The notes under the pieces were generated by a model. The model searched no databases and was not told where the DNA came from. It saw only the letters and a program-made list of their open reading frames with translations. A stretch of DNA of 64,000 bases from the NCBI RefSeq assembly GCF_013122565.1, contig NZ_CP053258.1; one strand, written 5' to 3'. The position numbers and the translations under genes were made by a program. The stretch is from Escherichia coli (lineage in GTDB: Bacteria; Pseudomonadota; Gammaproteobacteria; Enterobacterales; Enterobacteriaceae). Below are positions 33,240 through 44,154 of the stretch, one piece after another. How positions within the stretch are numbered: the first letter of the stretch is position 1; every line of letters begins with the position of its first letter.

Positions 33240-34133
<894 letters not shown>

Positions 34134-34186
34134 TTACCTCATCAATCGCTTGTTGTTATATGTTGTGTTGTGCACATCTATCCATT

Positions 34187-34210
34187 TAGACGTCCAGATG
34201 TAAAGATGAA
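34187..34210. promoter_or_regulatory. Tandem MetJ boxes in the metF promoter
   Basis: agacgtcc-agatgtaa-agatgaag: three consecutive 8-bp repeats matching the met-box consensus AGACGTCT, upstream of metF. Confidence 0.55.
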
Positions 34211-34542
34211 GGAAAAGCCGAAGGGCGTCAACCGAAAAATGACCACTGATGGTGAGGAAATATCAGGGAAGTTGAAATTTTTTCATCTGAAGAAAAAAAC
34301 AGGGATACCAATGTTCAGTATGAGGTGAATATTGGGAAAATGCTGACGTTATTAATTTTATATTTATTTAAATGATGATTCATTCTGATTTATTTACTTA
34401 AAAAATGAATTATATTTTCAAATAAAACAAAAAGATACTTTAAGCCTCTCCGGCCTCCTCGCTTTTAATTTTGAACCACTTCAAACAAATAATAAATTCC
34501 TAAGAATTAAGTTGCAGACAAATTATACATCCCTCACGATAA

Positions 34543-34580
34543 GTAGAACGTTCTAGTAGAACGTTCTACTTATATAAATA
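34543..34580 (+). promoter_or_regulatory. Tandem perfect 12-bp palindromes (TAGAACGTTCTA x2) overlapping a -10-like TATAAAT; putative LacI-type operator and promoter for the EIICB operon
   Basis: gtagaacgttctag-tagaacgttctac at about 34543..34569, 55 to 80 bp upstream of the EIICB start, followed by tatataaat. The palindrome has the central CG and AACGTT core typical of LacI/GalR-family operators. Confidence 0.55.
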
Positions 34581-34623
34581 ATCGTTCTTGCGCAGTCATC
34601 TGCGCTATTCGGGGGAAATCAGC

Positions 34624-36123
34624 ATGGGTCTGATATCGAGTGTCGTAAAATCACTTTCTAAACTGTCGATGATTGGTCGCGCGCTGATGCTGCCAATTTC
34701 GCTTCTGCCTGCCGCCGGGTTGTTGCTGGCGTTCGGCGATAAATTCCACATGCCGTTGATGATGAATGCCGGCGGTATCATTTTTGATAACTTGCCGATG
34801 CTTTTTGCTATCGGTTCTGCCGTGGGACTGGCTTCAGAATCGGGTATTGCGGCGCTATCCGCAGCTGTATCCGTCTTTGTCACTAATATCACCATCGGTA
34901 CTGTCCTTGGCATCACACCAGAGATGGCCGGGCAAGGCGGTAAATATGCGATGGTGGTGGGGATCCCAACGCTGCAAATGGGCGTCTTCGGCGGCCTGAT
35001 ATGCGGGGTTCTGGCGGCGTGGTGTTACAACCGTTTTCATACCATGCAATTACCAGAATTCCTTGGCTTTTTCTCCGGCAAACGCTTCGTGGCTATCGCG
35101 ACGGCTTTTCTTTCCTTCATCCTTGGCTTGTTACTGCCCTATGTCTGGCAACATATTCAGTCGGGAATCGATGCCCTATCAGTTATCGTCAATGGTGATA
35201 ACCAGGCGGCATCGACCTTTATTTTTGGTGTGACAGAACGTGCGCTCATTCCGCTTGGCCTGCACCACATCTGGTATCCATCGTTCTGGTACTCTTTTGG
35301 TGATTACACCACCCAGGCAGGCCAAATGATCCACGGTGACCAAACAATTTGGTTCAAAATGCTGGAAGAAGGTGTGAAATCGTTCAGTAGCGACAGCTAC
35401 CATAACGCGGGTAAGTTTTTACAGGGCGAGTTCCCGCTCATGCTGTTCGCGCTGCCTGCGGCGTGTCTGGCGATGTACCATGAAGCACACACCAAAAATA
35501 AGAAAATTGCCGCCGGTATTCTGTTCTCTGCCGCATTAACCTGTTTCCTGACAGGTATTACAGAACCCGTTGAATTTACCTTTATTTTCGTGGCACCGGT
35601 ACTGTACGTATTCAACGCGATAATGGCTGGCCTCTCCTATATGGCGATGTATCTGCTCCATGCCCATATTGCAAAATCCTTCTCGGCAGGGCTTATCGAT
35701 TATATTTCGTTTGGCATCCTGCCATCATTTAACGGCTACGAAACCAACTTCCTGAGTGCCATTATTGTTGGCGTACCGATGGCGATTATCTATTACTTCA
35801 CTTTCCGCTTTGTTATTCGCCGTTTTGATGTGAAAACACCGGGTCGAGCCGAAAGCACCGTATCCGCTAACGATAAAACCGATGATGAACTGGCTACGGA
35901 AATTATCAGTCTGCTGGGCGGCCAACAAAATATCTCTTCCGTCGCATCCTGCATAACACGCCTGCGTCTGGAAGTGGCAGATAAGGATGTAGTTGATAAA
36001 GATGGACTGAACAATGTCGGTGCTCGTGGTGTGGTTTTTGTCGGCGATAACGGCATTCAGGTGATTTTTGGCGCACGTGCACAATTTATCGCGCAAACCA
36101 TGTCGACGATGATTGGCAAATAG
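34624..36123 (+). CDS. PTS glucose-family EIICB component, sugar specificity unknown; accessory
   Basis: About 499 aa from MGLISSVVKSLSKLSMIGRALMLPISLLPAAGLLLAFGD, preceded by a GGGGGA Shine-Dalgarno. A PtsG/MalX-like EIIC domain is followed by a C-terminal EIIB domain with the phosphorylatable Cys motif SCITRLRLEV. The ORF-track start at 34588 is probably too far upstream. No EIIA gene is adjacent. Confidence 0.85.
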   Translation: MGLISSVVKSLSKLSMIGRALMLPISLLPAAGLLLAFGDKFHMPLMMNAGGIIFDNLPMLFAIGSAVGLASESGIAALSAAVSVFVTNITIGTVLGITPEMAGQGGKYAMVVGIPTLQMGVFGGLICGVLAAWCYNRFHTMQLPEFLGFFSGKRFVAIATAFLSFILGLLLPYVWQHIQSGIDALSVIVNGDNQAASTFIFGVTERALIPLGLHHIWYPSFWYSFGDYTTQAGQMIHGDQTIWFKMLEEGVKSFSSDSYHNAGKFLQGEFPLMLFALPAACLAMYHEAHTKNKKIAAGILFSAALTCFLTGITEPVEFTFIFVAPVLYVFNAIMAGLSYMAMYLLHAHIAKSFSAGLIDYISFGILPSFNGYETNFLSAIIVGVPMAIIYYFTFRFVIRRFDVKTPGRAESTVSANDKTDDELATEIISLLGGQQNISSVASCITRLRLEVADKDVVDKDGLNNVGARGVVFVGDNGIQVIFGARAQFIAQTMSTMIGK

Positions 36124-36196
36124 TCATAAGATTACGCTTTGTTGGAGGTTCTGGTCCCTGACTGGAACCTTCGTACTTATTGTTCAGGGAGTGAAG

Positions 36197-37213
36197 TTGA
36201 AGAAAGTCAGCATAATTGATGTTGCCAAAAGCGCAGGAGTCTCGGTCTCTACTGTGTCGCTGGTCCTGCGCCAGAAAGGCAAAATTTCCGAGGCAACCAT
36301 CGAGAAAGTTCATGCTGCCATTACTGAGCTTGGCTACGTGCATAATGTTGCCGCCGCCAATTTACGCTCCAACACTTCAAATCTTATCGGTCTGATTTTA
36401 CGTGATTTTAGCGATAGCTTTTCCATCAAAGTGATGGCAAGTATTGTTCAGGAACTGGAAGCACAAGGATATATGGTTTTCCTCGGGCAACCACAGAACG
36501 AGCATGAACATCTTGAACGCTGTTTGCTTTCCTTCAAGCAACAAGGTGTTGCCGGAGTGATTTATCTGGCTTCCGATGCGCAGCGTGAAACCTTACCCGC
36601 GCTGATTCGCCAGTGCCCTCTTCCTCTTGTCGTCGCCTCACAATCCCCCATCAAAGATGAATGCAATCTGGTATTGCGCGACAACCAGCAGGCGGCAAGC
36701 CTTGCCACGCGTTATTTAATTGAGCGTGGACATCGTTACATTGCCTACCTCGGCGGCAGAGAAAGCGATCTTATCCGCCAACAGCGACTGGTGGGTTTTC
36801 GCCAGACCCTGGCAAAATTCGGTATTGCCAGTCGTGACGAGTTCACGCCAGCCTGTGACGATGATACATACGCCGCCAGCATGGCCACGCGCCAGTTGCT
36901 GGAGAATAACAATGCCATCACCGCCCTACTCTGCCATTCGCCCGAGGCCATGATTGGCGGTATCAACGGCATACATCAGGTGGGGCGCACCGTCGGGAGA
37001 GACATCTTTCTGACCCAGCAGGTGGCGCTAATTGGTTTTGAAGATATGCTGCACATCAATCTGACCTCGCCCGTTTTCACCTATGTCTCTTCCGCCAGTG
37101 AAGAAACCGGACGCCAGGCTGCTAATCTAATAATCCGCAAGTTAAAAGACCCGGAGCTGCAAATTCAAAGAATTGCGCTTTCCGGGCAACTGGTAGTGCG
37201 GGAATCGGCGTAA
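36197..37213 (+). CDS. LacI-family transcriptional regulator; accessory
   Basis: The N-terminal HTH (KKVSIIDVAKSAGVSVSTVSLVLRQKGKIS) is the LacI/GalR signature, followed by a periplasmic-binding-protein-like sugar-binding domain. The likely start is TTG or GTG at 36191..36197 after AGGGAG, giving about 338 aa; the ORF-track start at 36113 overlaps the EIICB gene. Confidence 0.8.
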   Translation: MKKVSIIDVAKSAGVSVSTVSLVLRQKGKISEATIEKVHAAITELGYVHNVAAANLRSNTSNLIGLILRDFSDSFSIKVMASIVQELEAQGYMVFLGQPQNEHEHLERCLLSFKQQGVAGVIYLASDAQRETLPALIRQCPLPLVVASQSPIKDECNLVLRDNQQAASLATRYLIERGHRYIAYLGGRESDLIRQQRLVGFRQTLAKFGIASRDEFTPACDDDTYAASMATRQLLENNNAITALLCHSPEAMIGGINGIHQVGRTVGRDIFLTQQVALIGFEDMLHINLTSPVFTYVSSASEETGRQAANLIIRKLKDPELQIQRIALSGQLVVRESA

Positions 37214-37336
37214 TTATTTCTGCCAGTCTCCGTCTTTAGCCGGCGGTCATCGCCACAACTGCACTGATGGATATGGTATTCTTTCGAGTATCTTTGCGGG
37301 CACTAACGCCAGGAGTATCGCCATGAGAATGGCGCG

Positions 37337-38818
37337 ATGAACACAGGGAATTTCGAGTCGATACAAATCATACTCGACGCGCAAGAGTGGCGTAGCCTGC
37401 CGCTGCATCTGCGTCTGTATCACGCTTTTCGCCAATTGGTGATTTCCGGCGCGTTGTCTGATGGCGCAAAGCTGCCGTCCGCTCGCGCACTGGCCCAGCA
37501 ACTTGGTCTTTCCAGAGATACCGTCGAAAATGCCTATTCCCAGCTTCAGCGCGACGGTTTTATGACCCGCAGGCAGGGAGCCGGGAGTTTCGCCAGCCGC
37601 CAGGGGATCCCGCAAATTCAGGGGCAGCACGCTCAGCCCCCCTCGCCCGGACAAGCACCGGCATTAACCGCCCGCTGGCAGCCGATTGCCGATCGCGCCG
37701 TCTCTTTCGATGCCCGCCAGATGCAGACCTTTACGCTTGGCCTGCCGGAAACGCGAAACTTCCCGCTAAACATTTGGCAGAACTTTTCCCGCCAGATCCA
37801 ACGTGAGCAGGCGCATACGCTGATGTTAAATAGCGATCCGCAGGGCGAGCCGGAGCTGCGCCAGCAAATTGCGCATTACCTTAATTTTGAACGCGGCGCG
37901 AAGGTAGATGCAGAGCAGATTGTGATTGTCAGCGGCGCACGGCAGGCGTTCTGGCTGTGCGGGCAACTGCTGGCAGAGGCCGGGCAATCAGTGGCGATGG
38001 AAAATCCAGGCTATCCCGGCGCGCGTCAGGCGTTTTCTGCCGCACAGCTTAATCTTCTTCCCGTTGAAGTGGATGACGCCGGGATCCGGGTGGATAAACT
38101 GCCGCCCGCACCGCTGGTTTACGTCACGCCGTCGCACCAGTTTCCTTCTGGTCATTTGCTCACGCTGGCGCGCCGTCACGCCCTGATTGCCTGGGCACAG
38201 GCGCACAATGCGTGGATTATTGAAGACGACTACGACAGCGAATTTCACTACACCAGCGCGCCCGTCGCCTGTCTGCAAGGGTTAGACTGCGAGCAACGCA
38301 CCCTGTATGTCGGCACTTTCAGCAAAACGCTCTATCCTGGTTTGCGCATTGGTTATCTGGTGGTGCCTGCCTCGCTGGCTGCGCACTTTGCCGCCGCACG
38401 TAATTTGCTTGATGGCGCAACGCCTGCGTTATCCCAACTGACGCTGGCGCGATTTATCGAGTCCGGTCATTTTGCCGCCCATATTCGCACCATGCGCAAT
38501 ATGTACGCGGTGCGACAGGCGAGCCTTGCAGAGGCTATTCATCAGCACTTAAGTGAATGGGTCACGCCAGTGGTGACATCCGGTGGATTACAAATGCCCT
38601 GCTGGCTGCATGAAGATGTTGATGAGCAACAGACGCTGAACGCGGCGCGCCGCGCCGGGTTAAATATCGCCGGGATGCGCCAGTTCTGGCTGACGCACCC
38701 CGCGCCCGCGGGCTGGCTGCTGGGATTCGCCGCCTTTACCCCCTACGAAATTGAGCAGGGAGTCAAGCGTCTGCGGGCTGCATTATGCGCTGAAAACGTG
38801 CGCCCAGCCGGGTCATAA
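37337..38818 (+). CDS. MocR/GabR-family transcriptional regulator (GntR HTH fused to a PLP aminotransferase-like domain); accessory
   Basis: 493 aa. The N-terminal winged HTH (LYHAFRQLVISGALSDGAKLPSARALAQQLGLSRDTVENAYSQLQRDGF) is followed by a long aminotransferase class I/II-like domain. Confidence 0.8.
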   Translation: MNTGNFESIQIILDAQEWRSLPLHLRLYHAFRQLVISGALSDGAKLPSARALAQQLGLSRDTVENAYSQLQRDGFMTRRQGAGSFASRQGIPQIQGQHAQPPSPGQAPALTARWQPIADRAVSFDARQMQTFTLGLPETRNFPLNIWQNFSRQIQREQAHTLMLNSDPQGEPELRQQIAHYLNFERGAKVDAEQIVIVSGARQAFWLCGQLLAEAGQSVAMENPGYPGARQAFSAAQLNLLPVEVDDAGIRVDKLPPAPLVYVTPSHQFPSGHLLTLARRHALIAWAQAHNAWIIEDDYDSEFHYTSAPVACLQGLDCEQRTLYVGTFSKTLYPGLRIGYLVVPASLAAHFAAARNLLDGATPALSQLTLARFIESGHFAAHIRTMRNMYAVRQASLAEAIHQHLSEWVTPVVTSGGLQMPCWLHEDVDEQQTLNAARRAGLNIAGMRQFWLTHPAPAGWLLGFAAFTPYEIEQGVKRLRAALCAENVRPAGS

Positions 38819-39869
38819 TCTCATACGGGATGGTGTCGCAGGCAGCCGCAACCTCTTCCAGCGTCTGGCCTGTGCCAATAAACTCCACCTTATCGCCCGC
38901 CGTCGGCGTGACGGCGCTGGCATCGACCATAAAGCTGTCCATACACACCCGCCCCAACACCGGTAACCGCACCCCGCGCCAGCATACGCCCGCCGGAGGA
39001 CGCATATTTCGCGGAACGCCATCCGCGTAACCCGCGGATATCGTGGCGATACGCAGCGGACGCGTGGCGGTAACCGTGCTGCCGTAGCCAACTGGCGTTC
39101 CGGCCGGAACATCCTGCACGCGCAGTATGGTCAGCGTCAGCGTAAAGACCGGTTTTAACGGCCTGGAAAACCACGGCTGGGTGACGCCAAACAGCGCAAT
39201 CCCCGGACGGCAGAGATCTTCCCGCCAGCCCGAGTGCAAAAACATCCCGCAGGAGTTCGCCAGCGAAAATCGGCTGCTGGGGAAAACCGTTTTTGCCTGC
39301 TGAAGTCGCGCGTGTTGCGCCATATTTAACGCATGATCCGGCCTGTCGGCGTTCGCCAGATGGCTGATGATATAATCCGGCGCAGGCCAGTTACGCTCAC
39401 GAAAAATCGCCGCCAGACGCATCAGTTGTTGCGACATCACGCCCAGCCGCGACATCCCGGAATCGAGCTGAATCATCACCGCACGCCGCTGCTGGCGCGT
39501 TTCCAGTAACGTAAGCCACGCCATCACCTGGTCTACGGAATTGAGCAATGGCGTGATCTGCTGCGCGTAACAAAATGCCATCGCCTCCGGCATAACCCCA
39601 TTAAGCACCACCACCCGCGCATCAGCGGGCAAGCATTTACGCAGCGCCACACCTTCAGAAAGCTGCGCGACAAAAAAGATCCGGCAGTTCGCCGCATACA
39701 GGGCGGGAGCAATCGCCTCCGCCCCCAGACCATAGGCATTCGCCTTCAACACCGCGCCACATTGCGCACGGGCAGCATGGCGGGCCAGGGTGCGATAATT
39801 TTCGACAATGGCGGCGAGATTGACGCACATAACGCCGCACGCCGCCTGAATTTCAGCAAGAGTTATCAT
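38763..39869 (-). CDS. Alanine racemase-family PLP enzyme (fold type III); accessory
   Basis: 368 aa. Contains the PLP-lysine motif [11 protein letters not shown] near the N-terminus and an Alr-like C-terminal beta domain. Overlaps the MocR 3' end by about 56 bp (convergent) and the downstream SHMT-like gene by 4 bp. Confidence 0.8.
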
Positions 39870-41104
39870 TGATAAGGCAACGGATAGCGGTTGGTTAGTT
39901 GTATTACTTTTTGCTCAATATCGGCGCAAATGTCTGCAATATCTGACGCGTTAATGGCCAGAATGATTTCACTTATCCAGTCAGCAATAAGCGCAAAGTC
40001 ATCCGCCTGCATCCCACGCGTGGTGCAGGCCGCGCTGCCAATACGAACGCCGGAGGTAATCGACGGCGGCTGCGGATCGCCCGGCAGGGTGTTTTTATTA
40101 ACCGTGATCCCCGCCAGTTCGAGAAAATACTCTACCTGTGCGCCGGTTAACCCCTGCGGGCGCAGGTCGATAATCCCCAGATGGCAATCGGTGCCGCCCG
40201 TTAACAGCGTCAGACCGCGCTGCGCCAGTTGCTGGCACATCGCCTGCGCATTGTCGATGACCTGCCCGGCATAACGTTTAAATTCCGGTTGTAATGCCTC
40301 GCCAAGCGCCACCGCTTTCGCCGCGATAACGTGCATCAACGGCCCGCCCTGCAAACCGGGAAAGATGGCGCTGTCGATTTTTTTCGCAAGCCGGGCGTCG
40401 TTGGTGAGGATCATGCCGCCGCGCGGCCCGCGCAACGTTTTATGCGTGGTGGTGGTGACCACATCAGCATACGCCAGCGGCGAAGGGAAACAGCCGCCCG
40501 CCACCAGCCCGGCAAAGTGCGCCATATCCACCAGCAAAATGGCGCCCACGGCATCGGCAATGCGGCGAAAACGGGCAAAATCATAGCGGCGTGGATAAGC
40601 CGATCCTCCGGCAATAATCAACCGTGGGCGCTCACGCAGCGCGATCATCTCGACTTCATCCATATCAATCAGGCCACTATGGGCATCGACGCCATAGTGA
40701 AAAGCGTTAAACCATTTGCCAGATTGATTGACCGGCGAACCGTGCGTGAGATGCCCGCCGCATTGCAGGCTCATGCCAAGAATTTTGTCGCCGGGTTTCA
40801 GCAACGCCAGATAGACCGCCTGATTCGCCTGGCTGCCGGAGTGAGGCTGCACATTGACGTAACGTGCGCCAAAGAGTTGCTGGGCGCGGGTTATCGCCAG
40901 CATCTCAACCTCATCAATAAACTTACAGCCGCCGTAGTAGCGATGCTGGTAATAACCTTCGGCGTATTTATTGGTTAACACCGACCCCTGCGCCGCGAGA
41001 ACAGCGGGGCTTACGAAATTCTCCGAGGCAATCAGTTCCAGCGACTACTGCTGGCGCTGTTGCTCCTGGTTAATCAATGCAAAAAGTGGATCGTTATTTA
41101 TCAT
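39866..41104 (-). pseudogene. Serine hydroxymethyltransferase (GlyA)-like PLP enzyme with an in-frame amber stop at codon 20
   Basis: Reverse-strand translation from ATG at about 41104 gives [50 protein letters not shown]..., then continues through the SHMT signatures HSGSQAN and [16 protein letters not shown]. The TAG is at about 41045..41047 where GlyA has Glu. The ORF-track entry is only the 371-aa reinitiation product from GTG at 40981. Confidence 0.75.
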
Positions 41105-41337
41105 GCGCTTCCCCCGAAAATTCATCATGCGATGATTTTCGCAGGGAAAACGTCGCCCGCACCCTGCCACTTTTTAGAATGAGCGCAGACCACCTATGTC
41201 GTTTTACTTAAAAGAAGAGGGAAGAAGGCTCCAGGCATCTCCATATGCGATTCTGGTTGGTAATACATCATATTCCAGCTGCTCTTATCTGCCTACGTTA
41301 TTGCATAGGCAGAATAAGGCAGCCTCAATACGTACTT

Positions 41338-42891
41338 TTACTTGATATATTTCACGCGCATACCGTTGATCTGTTCATCCGTGATGGTGTTACCCGCTTT
41401 GAAGTAATCAACCACGGCGTGATAAACGTAATAACCGCCCGTTGTGTTACGCGCTTTCCCTTCGGTAAAGGCGGTAAAACCATCTCCACCATCAGCAAGG
41501 AAACTCTGGGTGGCAATAGAATAAACTGTCGCATCTTCAATGGGTTTGCCATTCAGAGTCAGTGTGATTACCCGCTGACCAACCGGCTTGCTGCTGTCGT
41601 ACTTCATTTCCAGGCCTTTCGATACCTGTAAAACGCCATTACTTAAACTTGCGCCGTGTTCCATCAAACTGCGTAATTGTTTCCCTGTGAGATCCATCGT
41701 CACCAGTTCGTTGGGGAACGGGAAGGTACTGATGACGCCGCCCATCGTAATCGCCCCTGCGGGGATCTCATTGCGAATACCGCCAGAGTTGGTTAAGGCT
41801 ATTTGGGTGTTTTTACCCGCCGCTACCAGTAAAGCGTCAGCCGCCAGGTTCCCGAGGGAAGCCGATTCACCATAGGCACGTTTTAATTCAACCGGCGATT
41901 GCGCCACCGTTTGTTGCACCACTTCATCAAGCTTTTTATTCCAGCCGTCGATCACCTGTTTTGTTTGCGGATCGGGCTTCCACTCGTCGGCGTAAATGGT
42001 TTTCAGCTCGAAGTTTTTCACCGTAAAATCATGCGGCTTCTCTTTGTAGTCGAGGACCAGTTTGCCCACATCAATCCCGCCGCTGTCAGTGGAGAGGATG
42101 AGCGTATTGCCGACTTTAATCGGTTCCGGCGTACCCACATGTGCATGTCCGGTGATCAAAATATCCAGCCCTTTCACCTGACTTGCCGTCTGAATATCTT
42201 TATCCAGTGCGCGACGCACATCGGTCCCTCCCATACTGGACTGGCGGGCCGGAACACCTTCATGGATCAGGGCGACGGTCAAATCAACCTTGCCTTTAAG
42301 TTCATCGATATAACGTTGTAGCCATTTAATTTCATCGCGCGCTTCAATACCCACGCGCGTGGCAGCAGATACCGTATCGTTGAAAGCAAATACTCCGTGC
42401 AAACCTATAACGCCTATTTTCACGCCGTCTTTTTCGATGATGGTATATGGCTTATCCCAGAATGATTTACTGCTGTTCTGATAAAAAACATTGCCCTGCA
42501 CAATAGGGAATTTTGCCTGACTCAACTGTAATAATGTGTTGTCCCAGCCGTGGTCAAATTCATGGTTGCCTATCGTGACGGCATCAAACGGCATAGTATT
42601 CATAATATCGATAATAGCCTTACCTTTGGTCAGGCTGCTGATATATGGCCCGGTAAAATAATCACCCGCATCAAAAAACCATGTCGCTTTATTTTTTGCT
42701 TTTTCTTGCTTAACCAGCGTAGTGATATTTGCCCAGCCGCCAATATCCCGTTTACCGTCAGCGATCCACGGCACTTTATAAGGCTCGACATGCGCATGGA
42801 GGTCGTTGGTATAAATGATGGTGACATCTTTGGCGCAAGCCCAGAACGGCAATGTTAATGCGATACCCGCAGCAAGTATTTTAATTTTCAT
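41338..42891 (-). CDS. Secreted metallophosphoesterase / 5'-nucleotidase-family protein (UshA/CpdB-like); accessory
   Basis: 517 aa with an N-terminal signal peptide ([20 protein letters not shown]) and calcineurin-like phosphoesterase motifs ([36 protein letters not shown]), followed by a C-terminal 5'-nucleotidase-type domain. Confidence 0.8.
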
Positions 42892-43023
42892 AAATAGTCC
42901 CTTTCAGTGATTTAAAGGATTGCTACATTACGTTCTGAAAGAGTTATTTATGTGAGAGTAATCACATCCGCAGGGGATAGTTGCCGGACAAAATCAACGA
43001 CCTTGTGAAATCGTTGGTGATAT

Positions 43024-44154
43024 ATGTCAACTCTGTTTACGATTAATGCCTGCAAGTCGTTTGGTTGCCGTAATTTAGGGCAACCAACATCGACAGATTA
43101 CAGCTGGCCAGACTATCGACTGGGTTATCCGGCACTGCACTGTCGGGCATGTGGAAGTTACCCGCCGTTGTTTGACGAACAGCAATTTCGTGACTGGTTG
43201 TCAGTTCACTTATCTACTTTTGCAACTGAGAAAGGTCATTTCTGCCCGGTATGTTATGGCACAAAGACGATTTGTTATGGCCACAATCCACAGGGGTCGC
43301 AACGCATTCAATGTCGTAACTGCAAAAAAGTCTGGACACCTAAACAATATCAGAAAGAAATAACGCCTCCTGAAATAATCGAAACGGTTGCTCTTCTGGT
43401 GCCATTTCAGGGAGCCAGCAATGGGCAGAAACTGTATGTTTTAATCAGTTTTGATGCTCTTCGCGGTAATATTCTTCATCTTTCTACTAATTACACGCAG
43501 CATCAGGCTGGAGAAAGTCTGCATTATCGATACAGAGGAAATGCAGAACCAGAGTTACACGAGAGTAATATTGTACAACGCGTTGATATGCGCGAAGCAC
43601 AATTTCTACGCCGCAGTCAGTTTGATGAAATTCAGTATGGCAGCGCAGCGCTCAAACGCAATGCTAAAGGTATTATTCTGCGTCCGGTTATCACTGCACA
43701 CGGGCATTTCAGAGTACTGAATATTTTATTCCCTACAGTAAAAACACATGTAATTTCACACGAGTGTTTTTTAAGAGGTGCCATTATTACGGCATGGGCT
43801 GATCTGTTTCGCCAACAGCAAGGTGAAATTTGGTTTATTGAAGAGGAAATAGCTGACTATACCGATAATATGCCCTGGAGTTTTCAGGGAACAACATATC
43901 ACGGCTGGTGGAAAAATCAGTGGCAACTTTGGGGTCAGGGCAAAAATCGTAAAATGGTATGTGCATTAACAGGCGGAAATAACAGCAAAGCTGAAATGCT
44001 CTCTTTCGCAACCAGCAGACATTTTATCGACTGGCTACATAAACAAGCAGTATTTACTCACAGCACCCCGCTTTCCGCAGGGCGCGTTACGCAAATACTG
44101 CTTTCTCTGGCTCAGGATTACAACAACTGCGCCAGCCGGTTGATATCCGACTGA
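43024..44154 (+). CDS. Cys-rich protein with two N-terminal zinc-ribbon motifs (IS1 InsA-like finger), rest unknown; accessory
   Basis: 376 aa. Motifs C-x5-C...HC-x2-C and CPVC...GSQRIQCRNCKKVW; the latter resembles the IS1 InsA zinc-finger region (from memory). The last 12 codons overlap the metL 3' end on the opposite strand. Confidence 0.6.
   Translation: MSTLFTINACKSFGCRNLGQPTSTDYSWPDYRLGYPALHCRACGSYPPLFDEQQFRDWLSVHLSTFATEKGHFCPVCYGTKTICYGHNPQGSQRIQCRNCKKVWTPKQYQKEITPPEIIETVALLVPFQGASNGQKLYVLISFDALRGNILHLSTNYTQHQAGESLHYRYRGNAEPELHESNIVQRVDMREAQFLRRSQFDEIQYGSAALKRNAKGIILRPVITAHGHFRVLNILFPTVKTHVISHECFLRGAIITAWADLFRQQQGEIWFIEEEIADYTDNMPWSFQGTTYHGWWKNQWQLWGQGKNRKMVCALTGGNNSKAEMLSFATSRHFIDWLHKQAVFTHSTPLSAGRVTQILLSLAQDYNNCASRLISD

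Follow-up and report, generated by a model that had tools for sequence, protein, structure and literature searches.

Tandem overlapping palindromes upstream of an EIICB permease gene as putative operators of a MalI-like repressor in a two-gene cassette of Enterobacterales

Which protein, if any, recognizes the two identical palindromes that stand side by side upstream of an EIICB PTS permease gene in this stretch of Escherichia coli DNA? In the window, that is, the whole 64-kb stretch that was analysed, the 12-bp palindrome TAGAACGTTCTA occurs exactly twice, at 34544-34555 and 34557-34568, with the single base G34556 between the copies, and the description of the two palindromes as exact and adjacent in the first-pass annotation was correct. 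The second-best match to TAGAACGTTCTA in the window, located within a gene, already deviates at two positions. A repeat search returned a 13-nt direct repeat (34542-34554 and 34555-34567) with a spacing of 13. The sequence from 34539 to 34573 reads ATAAGTAGAACGTTCTA-G-TAGAACGTTCTACTTAT, and its two arms of 17 nt (34539-34555 and 34557-34573) are 100% complementary around G34556, which results in a perfect palindrome of 35 bp. The element can be described as two 16-bp LacI-type sites that have 3 bp in common and whose centres are 13 bp apart. The putative operator O1, AGTAGAACGTTCTAGT (34542-34557), is palindromic at 14 of its 16 positions, with the central CG at 34549/34550, and the putative operator O2, AGTAGAACGTTCTACT (34555-34570), is a perfect 16-bp palindrome with the central CG at 34562/34563. 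Both have the form of LacI/GalR operators, which are even palindromes, about 14-20 bp long and centred on CG, and on the PWM built from the conserved sites described below they score 27.2 and 28.8 bits, respectively. Their centres lie 74.5 (O1) and 61.5 bp (O2) upstream of the EIICB ATG (34624), and the palindromes abut the sequence tatataaat (34571-34579), both in line with the earlier description. The gene upstream is metF (33240-34130, minus strand), followed by an AT-rich stretch of 350 bp. Also the AT-richness of the metF-EIICB intergenic region could be reproduced (GC 0.27 for 34278-34541 compared to 0.52 for the whole window), and the region contains no ORF of at least 60 aa, except one that is antisense to metF.

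A palindrome of this size is not unusual by itself. Perfect palindromes of at least 12 bp were observed 16 times in the window, compared to about 20 expected from Markov simulations. As single palindromes of this kind are as common as expected, a lone one would be weak evidence, and the significance of the element lies in the adjacent second copy, which is identical, and in its conservation throughout the 78 orthologous promoters that could be read, 76 of which are unique.

The EIICB gene (34624-36123, plus strand) encodes a glucose-family PTS permease of 499 aa without an EIIA domain. Its best NCBIfam match is TIGR02002 (glcB) with 563 bits, below the cutoff of 592, and the PtsG/GlcB-like product is 33% identical to MalX of E. 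coli K-12. The same CDS has been annotated by RefSeq in strain UTME-7. The predicted ribosome-binding site GGGGGA is found at 34611-34616 (plus strand), and nearly all orthologues present GGGGGAA 7-8 nt before the ATG. As had been noticed at first pass, a LacI-family regulator is encoded directly downstream (36197-37213, plus strand), so that a cognate gene for a LacI/GalR operator exists at the locus. This putative repressor of 338 aa, a paralogue of MalI, scores 325 bits with NF007449 (cutoff 310) and matches Pfam models PF00356 and PF13377. In 24 orthologues with 73-97% identity, the residues of the helix-turn-helix (HTH) and of the hinge are invariant. Wherever upstream DNA was available, the regulator gene was preceded by the same EIICB gene (86-99% identity).

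An alignment of regulator orthologues was scanned against one genome per species, which led to 80 loci. These were found in Escherichia, Kluyvera, Enterobacter, Lelliottia, Leclercia, Kosakonia, Citrobacter and Phytobacter, and also in Klebsiella spallanzanii, Serratia rubidaea, Pantoea, Erwinia, Mixta, Izhakiella and Shimwellia. The double AACGTT element was present in 78 of 78 readable upstream regions (76 unique), the gap between the two AACGTT cores was exactly 7 bases and the centre spacing 13 bp in every one of them, and no orthologue with a single site was encountered among these regions. The locus therefore has the form of an overlapping double site of the 13-bp type, in which the same motif occurs twice at an exact distance. 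Within the 76 unique sequences, positions ±1, 2, 3, 5 and 6 of both sites are near-invariant, site 2 alone showing exceptions, a single substitution at +1 and another at +5. Position ±4 is variable (G/A/T in the left half, C/A/T in the right half). The junction base shared by both sites is C in 70 cases, G in 4 and A in 2, and it sets which half is the perfect site; in 56 of the 76 it is the O1 position that contains the perfect palindrome AGTAGAACGTTCTACT. Symmetric flanks are kept out to ±10 (TAAGTAGAAC) and the outer half-sites are as well conserved as the inner ones. The orthologue consensus is CACGATA-AGTAGAACGTTCTACTAAAACGTTCTACT-TACAATAAC, and DNA outside of the conserved flanks diverges. 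A site that is kept upstream of orthologous targets while its surroundings diverge is the phylogenetic footprint expected for a LacI/GalR operator, and the invariance of the HTH and hinge residues of the regulator matches the invariance of the operator core.

The chromosomal position of the two genes differs by genus; they are located between metF and metL, between folD and cysS (Enterobacter group) or at other sites. As the cassette occupies different chromosomal places and the site is always present, we consider the double site to be part of a mobile two-gene module, in which transporter, repressor and a control region of about 170 bp move as one small cassette between chromosomal sites. In the loci with inspected flanks, no catabolic enzyme was linked to the cassette. 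It is present in 8 of 5426 complete E. coli genomes and is common in the Enterobacter/Lelliottia group. Besides EIICB and the regulator gene, the metF-metL island of the window (34278-44154) includes a UshA-like 5'-nucleotidase (41338-42891) and a 376-aa protein (43024-44154) for which there was no NCBIfam match. Relative to E. coli UTME-7, an insertion of 4123 bp (37215-41337; GC 0.58) is located exactly between the regulator gene and the 5'-nucleotidase-like gene. Within it lie the gene for a MocR/PdxR-like regulator (37337-38818) and, both on the minus strand, an alanine-racemase-like gene (38763-39869) and a serine hydroxymethyltransferase-like ORF (39866-40981), the latter shortened by about 39 residues at its N-terminus.

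Such surroundings offer other candidates for the binding protein. An odd palindrome of 13 bp, GTTCTA-N-TAGAAC, lies between the two CG centres and might be recognized by a MocR/GntR-type regulator, and the MocR-like regulator is encoded 2.8 kb downstream; alternatively, the palindromes could belong to the MetJ boxes of metF, the upstream neighbour, which possesses tandem CG-centred MetJ-box repeats. We see hardly any chance for either. The gene for the MocR-like regulator lies within the insertion, which is absent from UTME-7, although the element of that strain is identical, and no counterpart of the insertion was found in other loci with inspected flanks. The equal conservation of outer and inner half-sites also speaks against a protein that would read the inner ones. 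The element occurs in folD-cysS loci, far away from metF, AGAACGTTCT is out of the 8-bp register of met boxes and no met box (AGACGTCT-like, with up to two mismatches) was detected at 34542-34570. The MetJ operator of metF, AGACGTCC AGATGTAA AGATGAAG (34180-34211), is intact and lies in the intergenic part shared with K-12, separate from the island. MetJ boxes were thus rejected as the identity of the sites, given the 330 bp between them and the true metF boxes and the loci in which the element has no metF beside it.

The regulator encoded next to EIICB leads to a comparison with MalI of E. coli K-12, with which it has 37% identity. Both regulators pass the NCBIfam model for the MalI subfamily, both have the identical recognition helix GVSVSTVSLVL and both are associated with a glucose-family EIICB PTS permease as target. 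The hinge helices differ, being NVAAANLR in the cassette regulator and NRQASALR in K-12 MalI. MalI operators in the malI-malX intergenic region of K-12 are GATAAAACGTTTTATC and GATAAAACGTTTTACC, reportedly placed by Lloyd et al. in 2010 at positions -24 to -9 at malX and +3 to +18 at malI. They share with the cassette sites the 16-bp palindrome with the core TA-N-AACGTT-N-TA, whereas they differ at ±4 (A in K-12, G in the cassette), ±7 and ±8. Each K-12 promoter has one operator, whereas the cassette has two overlapping sites, and the mal genes are divergent and include malY, whereas the cassette genes are co-directional and come without an enzyme gene. MalI has been reported to bind a 16-bp target at the malX and malI promoters and to repress through such targets (PMC5543585). 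It regulates its own gene, and the same is proposed here for the cassette regulator.

Could, then, these sites be bound mainly by another member of the LacI family, above all by MalI from the chromosomal malXY system, while the adjacent regulator serves other targets? The identical recognition helices would allow it, the left half of site 2 is in most orthologues TAAAAC, which is a MalI half-site, K-12 MalI operators reach 10.8-15.2 bits on the cassette PWM, and RefSeq calls the cassette regulator gene malI. However, with 18-29 bits the cassette's own sites clearly outscore the MalI operators, from which they are distinguished by G at ±4 and G at ±7, and the hinge-helix residues are not the same. 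Moreover, the double site travels strictly with the cassette regulator in every context examined, and no other candidate targets of this regulator were found nearby when the fetched loci were scanned with the PWM. We therefore judge it unlikely that MalI is the main binding protein, and cross-talk by MalI as a secondary effect is possible. A K-12-type malI is present in 5414 of the 5426 E. coli genomes as compared to 8 for the cassette, which indicates that MalI and the cassette regulator are paralogues and not orthologues, and the two almost certainly coexist in cassette-bearing genomes. Also, the cassette regulator is not the orthologue of b1620 and its target is not a divergent malX/malY pair. 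The RefSeq name malI ("Mal regulon transcriptional regulator MalI", for example in NZ_CP169029.1) looks like a systematic over-annotation derived from a subfamily-level model. A regulator publicly labelled "MalI" would thus be a paralogue which, judging from the sequences, can be assigned to a different, PtsG-like PTS permease.

Taken together, we consider it very probable that the palindromes form a tandem pair of overlapping operators, O1 and O2, which are bound by dimers of the MalI-like repressor encoded downstream. This assignment is based on the sequence and its conservation, on the exclusive linkage to the cassette and on the likeness to MalI in both operator and recognition helix. The LacI/GalR-type double operator suggested in the first-pass annotation is well supported by the MalI-subfamily regulator at the locus, by the recognition helix and operator core in common with K-12 MalI and by the co-occurrence of element and regulator in 78 of 78 cases. 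In this way, an uncharacterised regulator found widely among Enterobacterales is given a confident operator assignment, which can be tested.

The exclusive linkage of the sites to the cassette was apparent at several scales. The search for further copies proposed at first pass covered the window, the fetched loci and metagenomes; none turned up in the window and the related loci. On the PWM, on which true cassette sites score 18-29 bits, nothing else in the window exceeded 10.7 bits, and no other hits of at least 14 bits were found within about 4 to 6 kb on either side in the fetched loci. When metagenome contigs were scanned for the exact 16-mer AGTAGAACGTTCTACT, at least 120 stretches were obtained. 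At least 45 of them were double sites and, among the matches listed, all those with enough flank adjoin EIICB and regulator genes, including cassettes with regulators that are just 66-71% identical. At least 75 of the listed metagenome matches were single 16-mer sites in unrelated contexts (GC 0.22-0.71) in which neither gene is present.

Two other recurrences of these sequences were noted. In human-gut metagenome contigs of about 43% GC, AGTAGAACGTTCTACT recurs within the apparently coding sequence CGAACTGTAATCTCTGTAGA-AGTAGAACGTTCTACT-GTACCGCC, which is unrelated to the cassette; among the matches listed this type is represented by L083, L101 and L105 and by about 30 other metagenome loci. 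Eukaryotic heat-shock elements are arrays of nGAAnnTTCn, and all literature matches to the exact string TAGAACGTTCTAGAAC were papers on synthetic HSF1-binding sites or eukaryotic heat-shock elements. Bacteria are not known to possess an HSF, and we regard this likeness as a coincidence of sequence, since a LacI-type site is indicated both by the pattern of conservation and by the regulator linked to it.

The position of the promoter was studied with respect to the two sites. A consensus promoter scan of the region did not return any sigma-70 promoter on the plus strand, and two weaker candidates were considered, both of which score about 5-6 bits in the window. The upstream candidate, P_up, consists of the -35-like TTGCAG (34512-34517, plus strand) and the -10-like CACGAT (34535-34540, plus strand) with a 17-bp spacer. 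Its TTGC is near-invariant at a fixed distance from the operators in the 76 unique sequences and is preceded by a conserved A/T-rich stretch similar to GAAAATTAAG; in the -10-like block, conservation is highest for the A in position 2 and the T in position 6. With a sigma-70 PWM, TTGCRS-17-CACGAT scored at least 4 bits in 97% of the unique orthologues, and it was the sole sigma-70 configuration that scored consistently. The predicted start of P_up is near 34547, inside O1, and O2 would then span about +9 to +24. The downstream candidate, P_down, uses the -10-like TATATAAATAAT (34571-34582, plus strand), which contains tatataaat, with O2 in the spacer and O1 at the -35 position. A -10-like hexamer follows O2 in 58% of the orthologues compared to 18% of shuffled controls, and it is TACAAT in 29 of 77, but no match to a -35 was found for P_down. 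The -10-like tatataaat noticed at first pass is thus one candidate, and by its sequence TTGCAG-17-CACGAT appears at least as good a promoter candidate. Either candidate promoter would place the sites within the footprint of the polymerase. The CG of CACGAT, located 12-13 bp further upstream, was also inspected by eye as the centre of a third operator and discarded, as no motif-like half-site surrounds it.

If P_up is used, the palindromes are transcribed, and they could conceivably act as RNA, folding into an extended hairpin in the 5'-UTR through which the stability of the mRNA, its translation or attenuation would be controlled. Indeed, the predicted start falls inside O1, and the segment 34536-34623 transcribed from P_up folds at -33.4 kcal/mol (z = -5.8). 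However, substitutions at ±4 of site 2 are not compensated, with A opposite C in 38 of the 76 unique sequences, and the 35-bp perfect palindrome is limited to few Escherichia-like sequences. The invariant central AACGTT with TA at ±5/6 is characteristic of a site for a protein, the palindromes are not followed by a T-run, and neither a predicted terminator nor an Rfam match was obtained. With no compensatory changes either, the element does not have the properties of a terminator or a structured RNA, and we regard an action as RNA as very unlikely. The -10-like element behind O2 is followed after 6-8 nt by a small GC-rich hairpin in the 5'-leader, GCGCAG-tcat-CTGCGC (34590-34605, plus strand). 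This hairpin is found at the same place in most orthologues with varying stems (GCGC/GCGC, GCAC/GTGC or AGCGCC/GGCGCT), and it may serve as a 5'-terminal stabilising hairpin if P_down is used.

Further upstream, the inverted repeat TTTGAA-CCAC-TTCAAA (34470-34485) resembles a site for regulators of the FNR/CRP family and is conserved in location (block 34465-34500). The block precedes the operators by about 70-80 bp and in most genera reads GGTTAATTnTCGATCAACTTCAAAgAATCAC; in Kluyvera a different palindrome stands in its place. When the repeat is compared to the FNR consensus TTGAT-N4-ATCAA, 8 of 10 positions agree. From its centre to the predicted start of P_up, the distance is 69.5 bp in Escherichia and 80.5 bp in most other genera, a difference of 11 bp or about one helical turn. 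A CRP site was sought in this upstream region as well, but the CRP PWM found nothing conserved, and the best candidate is FNR-like rather than CRP-like.

Between EIICB and the regulator gene, which are always on the same strand, the gap amounts to 60-134 bp across the loci, and no operator-like site was detected in it with the PWM. In the window, the gap contains a stem-loop (36143-36173, plus strand) of 14 pairs, G-U pairs included, with a 3-nt loop. Nearly all orthologues have a stem of 10-14 bp at this intercistronic place, differing in sequence and often followed by a short T-rich tract. RNAalifold on a MAFFT alignment of the gap gave no consensus structure, with the stems out of register, and the hairpins were taken from folds of the individual sequences. 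The stem-loop of the window does not fit the terminator consensus, and no clear terminator was found between the genes. The regulator gene is preceded by the ribosome-binding site CAGGGAG and begins with TTG (36185-36199, plus strand); TTCAGGGAG is near-invariant, and the start is TTG almost everywhere and GTG in a few cases. By its sequence features, this layout fits co-transcription with reduced output of the regulator and therefore negative autoregulation, provided that the hairpin is read through, as we infer. The conserved hairpin together with the ribosome-binding site and TTG start suggests differential expression of transporter and repressor. Alternatively, the hairpin might terminate transcription, and the regulator would then need a promoter of its own, without autoregulation.

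For the control of the cassette, we infer binding, promoter position, inducer and hairpin read-through and propose the following course of events. As long as inducer is absent, the repressor would occupy a stretch of about 29 bp, which lies directly after TTGCAG-17-CACGAT and directly before the second -10-like element TATATAAAT. As it sits between both -10 candidates, RNA polymerase would be excluded under either promoter. The inducer would be a sugar or sugar-phosphate, presumably the substrate or product of EIICB, which would release the repressor, and the EIICB-regulator transcript could then be made. The intercistronic hairpin and the TTG start would keep the synthesis of the regulator low and thereby close a negative autoregulatory loop. 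Otherwise, this would be ordinary local regulation of a sugar operon, of a kind already known. Mildly unusual are the strict invariance of the 13-bp overlap, the fusion to a 35-bp palindrome and the conserved upstream block.

Overlapping operators at this distance have been described before. In LacI-family regulons, the distances between sites peak at 13, 22 and 32 bp, and overlapping sites about 13 bp apart, which occur upstream of 110 operons, have been retained in some groups of orthologues (Ravcheev et al., 2014; PMC4052901). For E. coli GntR, the 13-bp double site at gntKU is functional, and the simultaneous occupancy of sites spaced by 13 bp was considered hard to reconcile with known structures (PMC4052901). 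The cassette shares with this class the conserved spacing of exactly 13 bp, whereas it differs in regulator and target, in the apparently obligatory pairing of the sites and, in the window, in their fusion to a 35-bp palindrome. It is an unusually clean example of such a double operator, the perfect 35-bp palindrome of this genome included. The invariant overlap might mean that two LacI-type dimers must bind jointly, with the two sites forming one composite quasi-palindromic site of about 33 bp, a proposal that we put forward tentatively and consider rather doubtful. Joint binding could involve distortion of the DNA or binding to different faces; the alternative is that the two sites are independent or mutually exclusive. 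If joint binding is true, the cassette would offer a small natural model system of the 13-bp arrangement, which was flagged as structurally unexplained by Ravcheev et al. (PMC4052901).

The same work may already contain the cassette under another name. In the entry of its supplement, the RegPrecise regulog PtsR (Ent638_0983, Enterobacter sp. 638) is given as a LacI-family regulator of the Enterobacteriales under 'Sugar utilization' with one regulon (PMC4052901 supplement), and the "2" in this entry is taken to be the number of sites. The name suggests a PTS target, and PtsR is, as far as the entry goes, a computational one for one genome. Literature searches did not find a paper mentioning the locus tag Ent638_0983, and a cluster look-up did not show a member from Enterobacter sp. 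638. In two complete genomes, those of E. hormaechei and Leclercia, the cassette is located at about 1.1-1.2 Mb, which is compatible with the gene number 983, and going by its supplementary entry the PtsR regulog probably describes the same system as the cassette.
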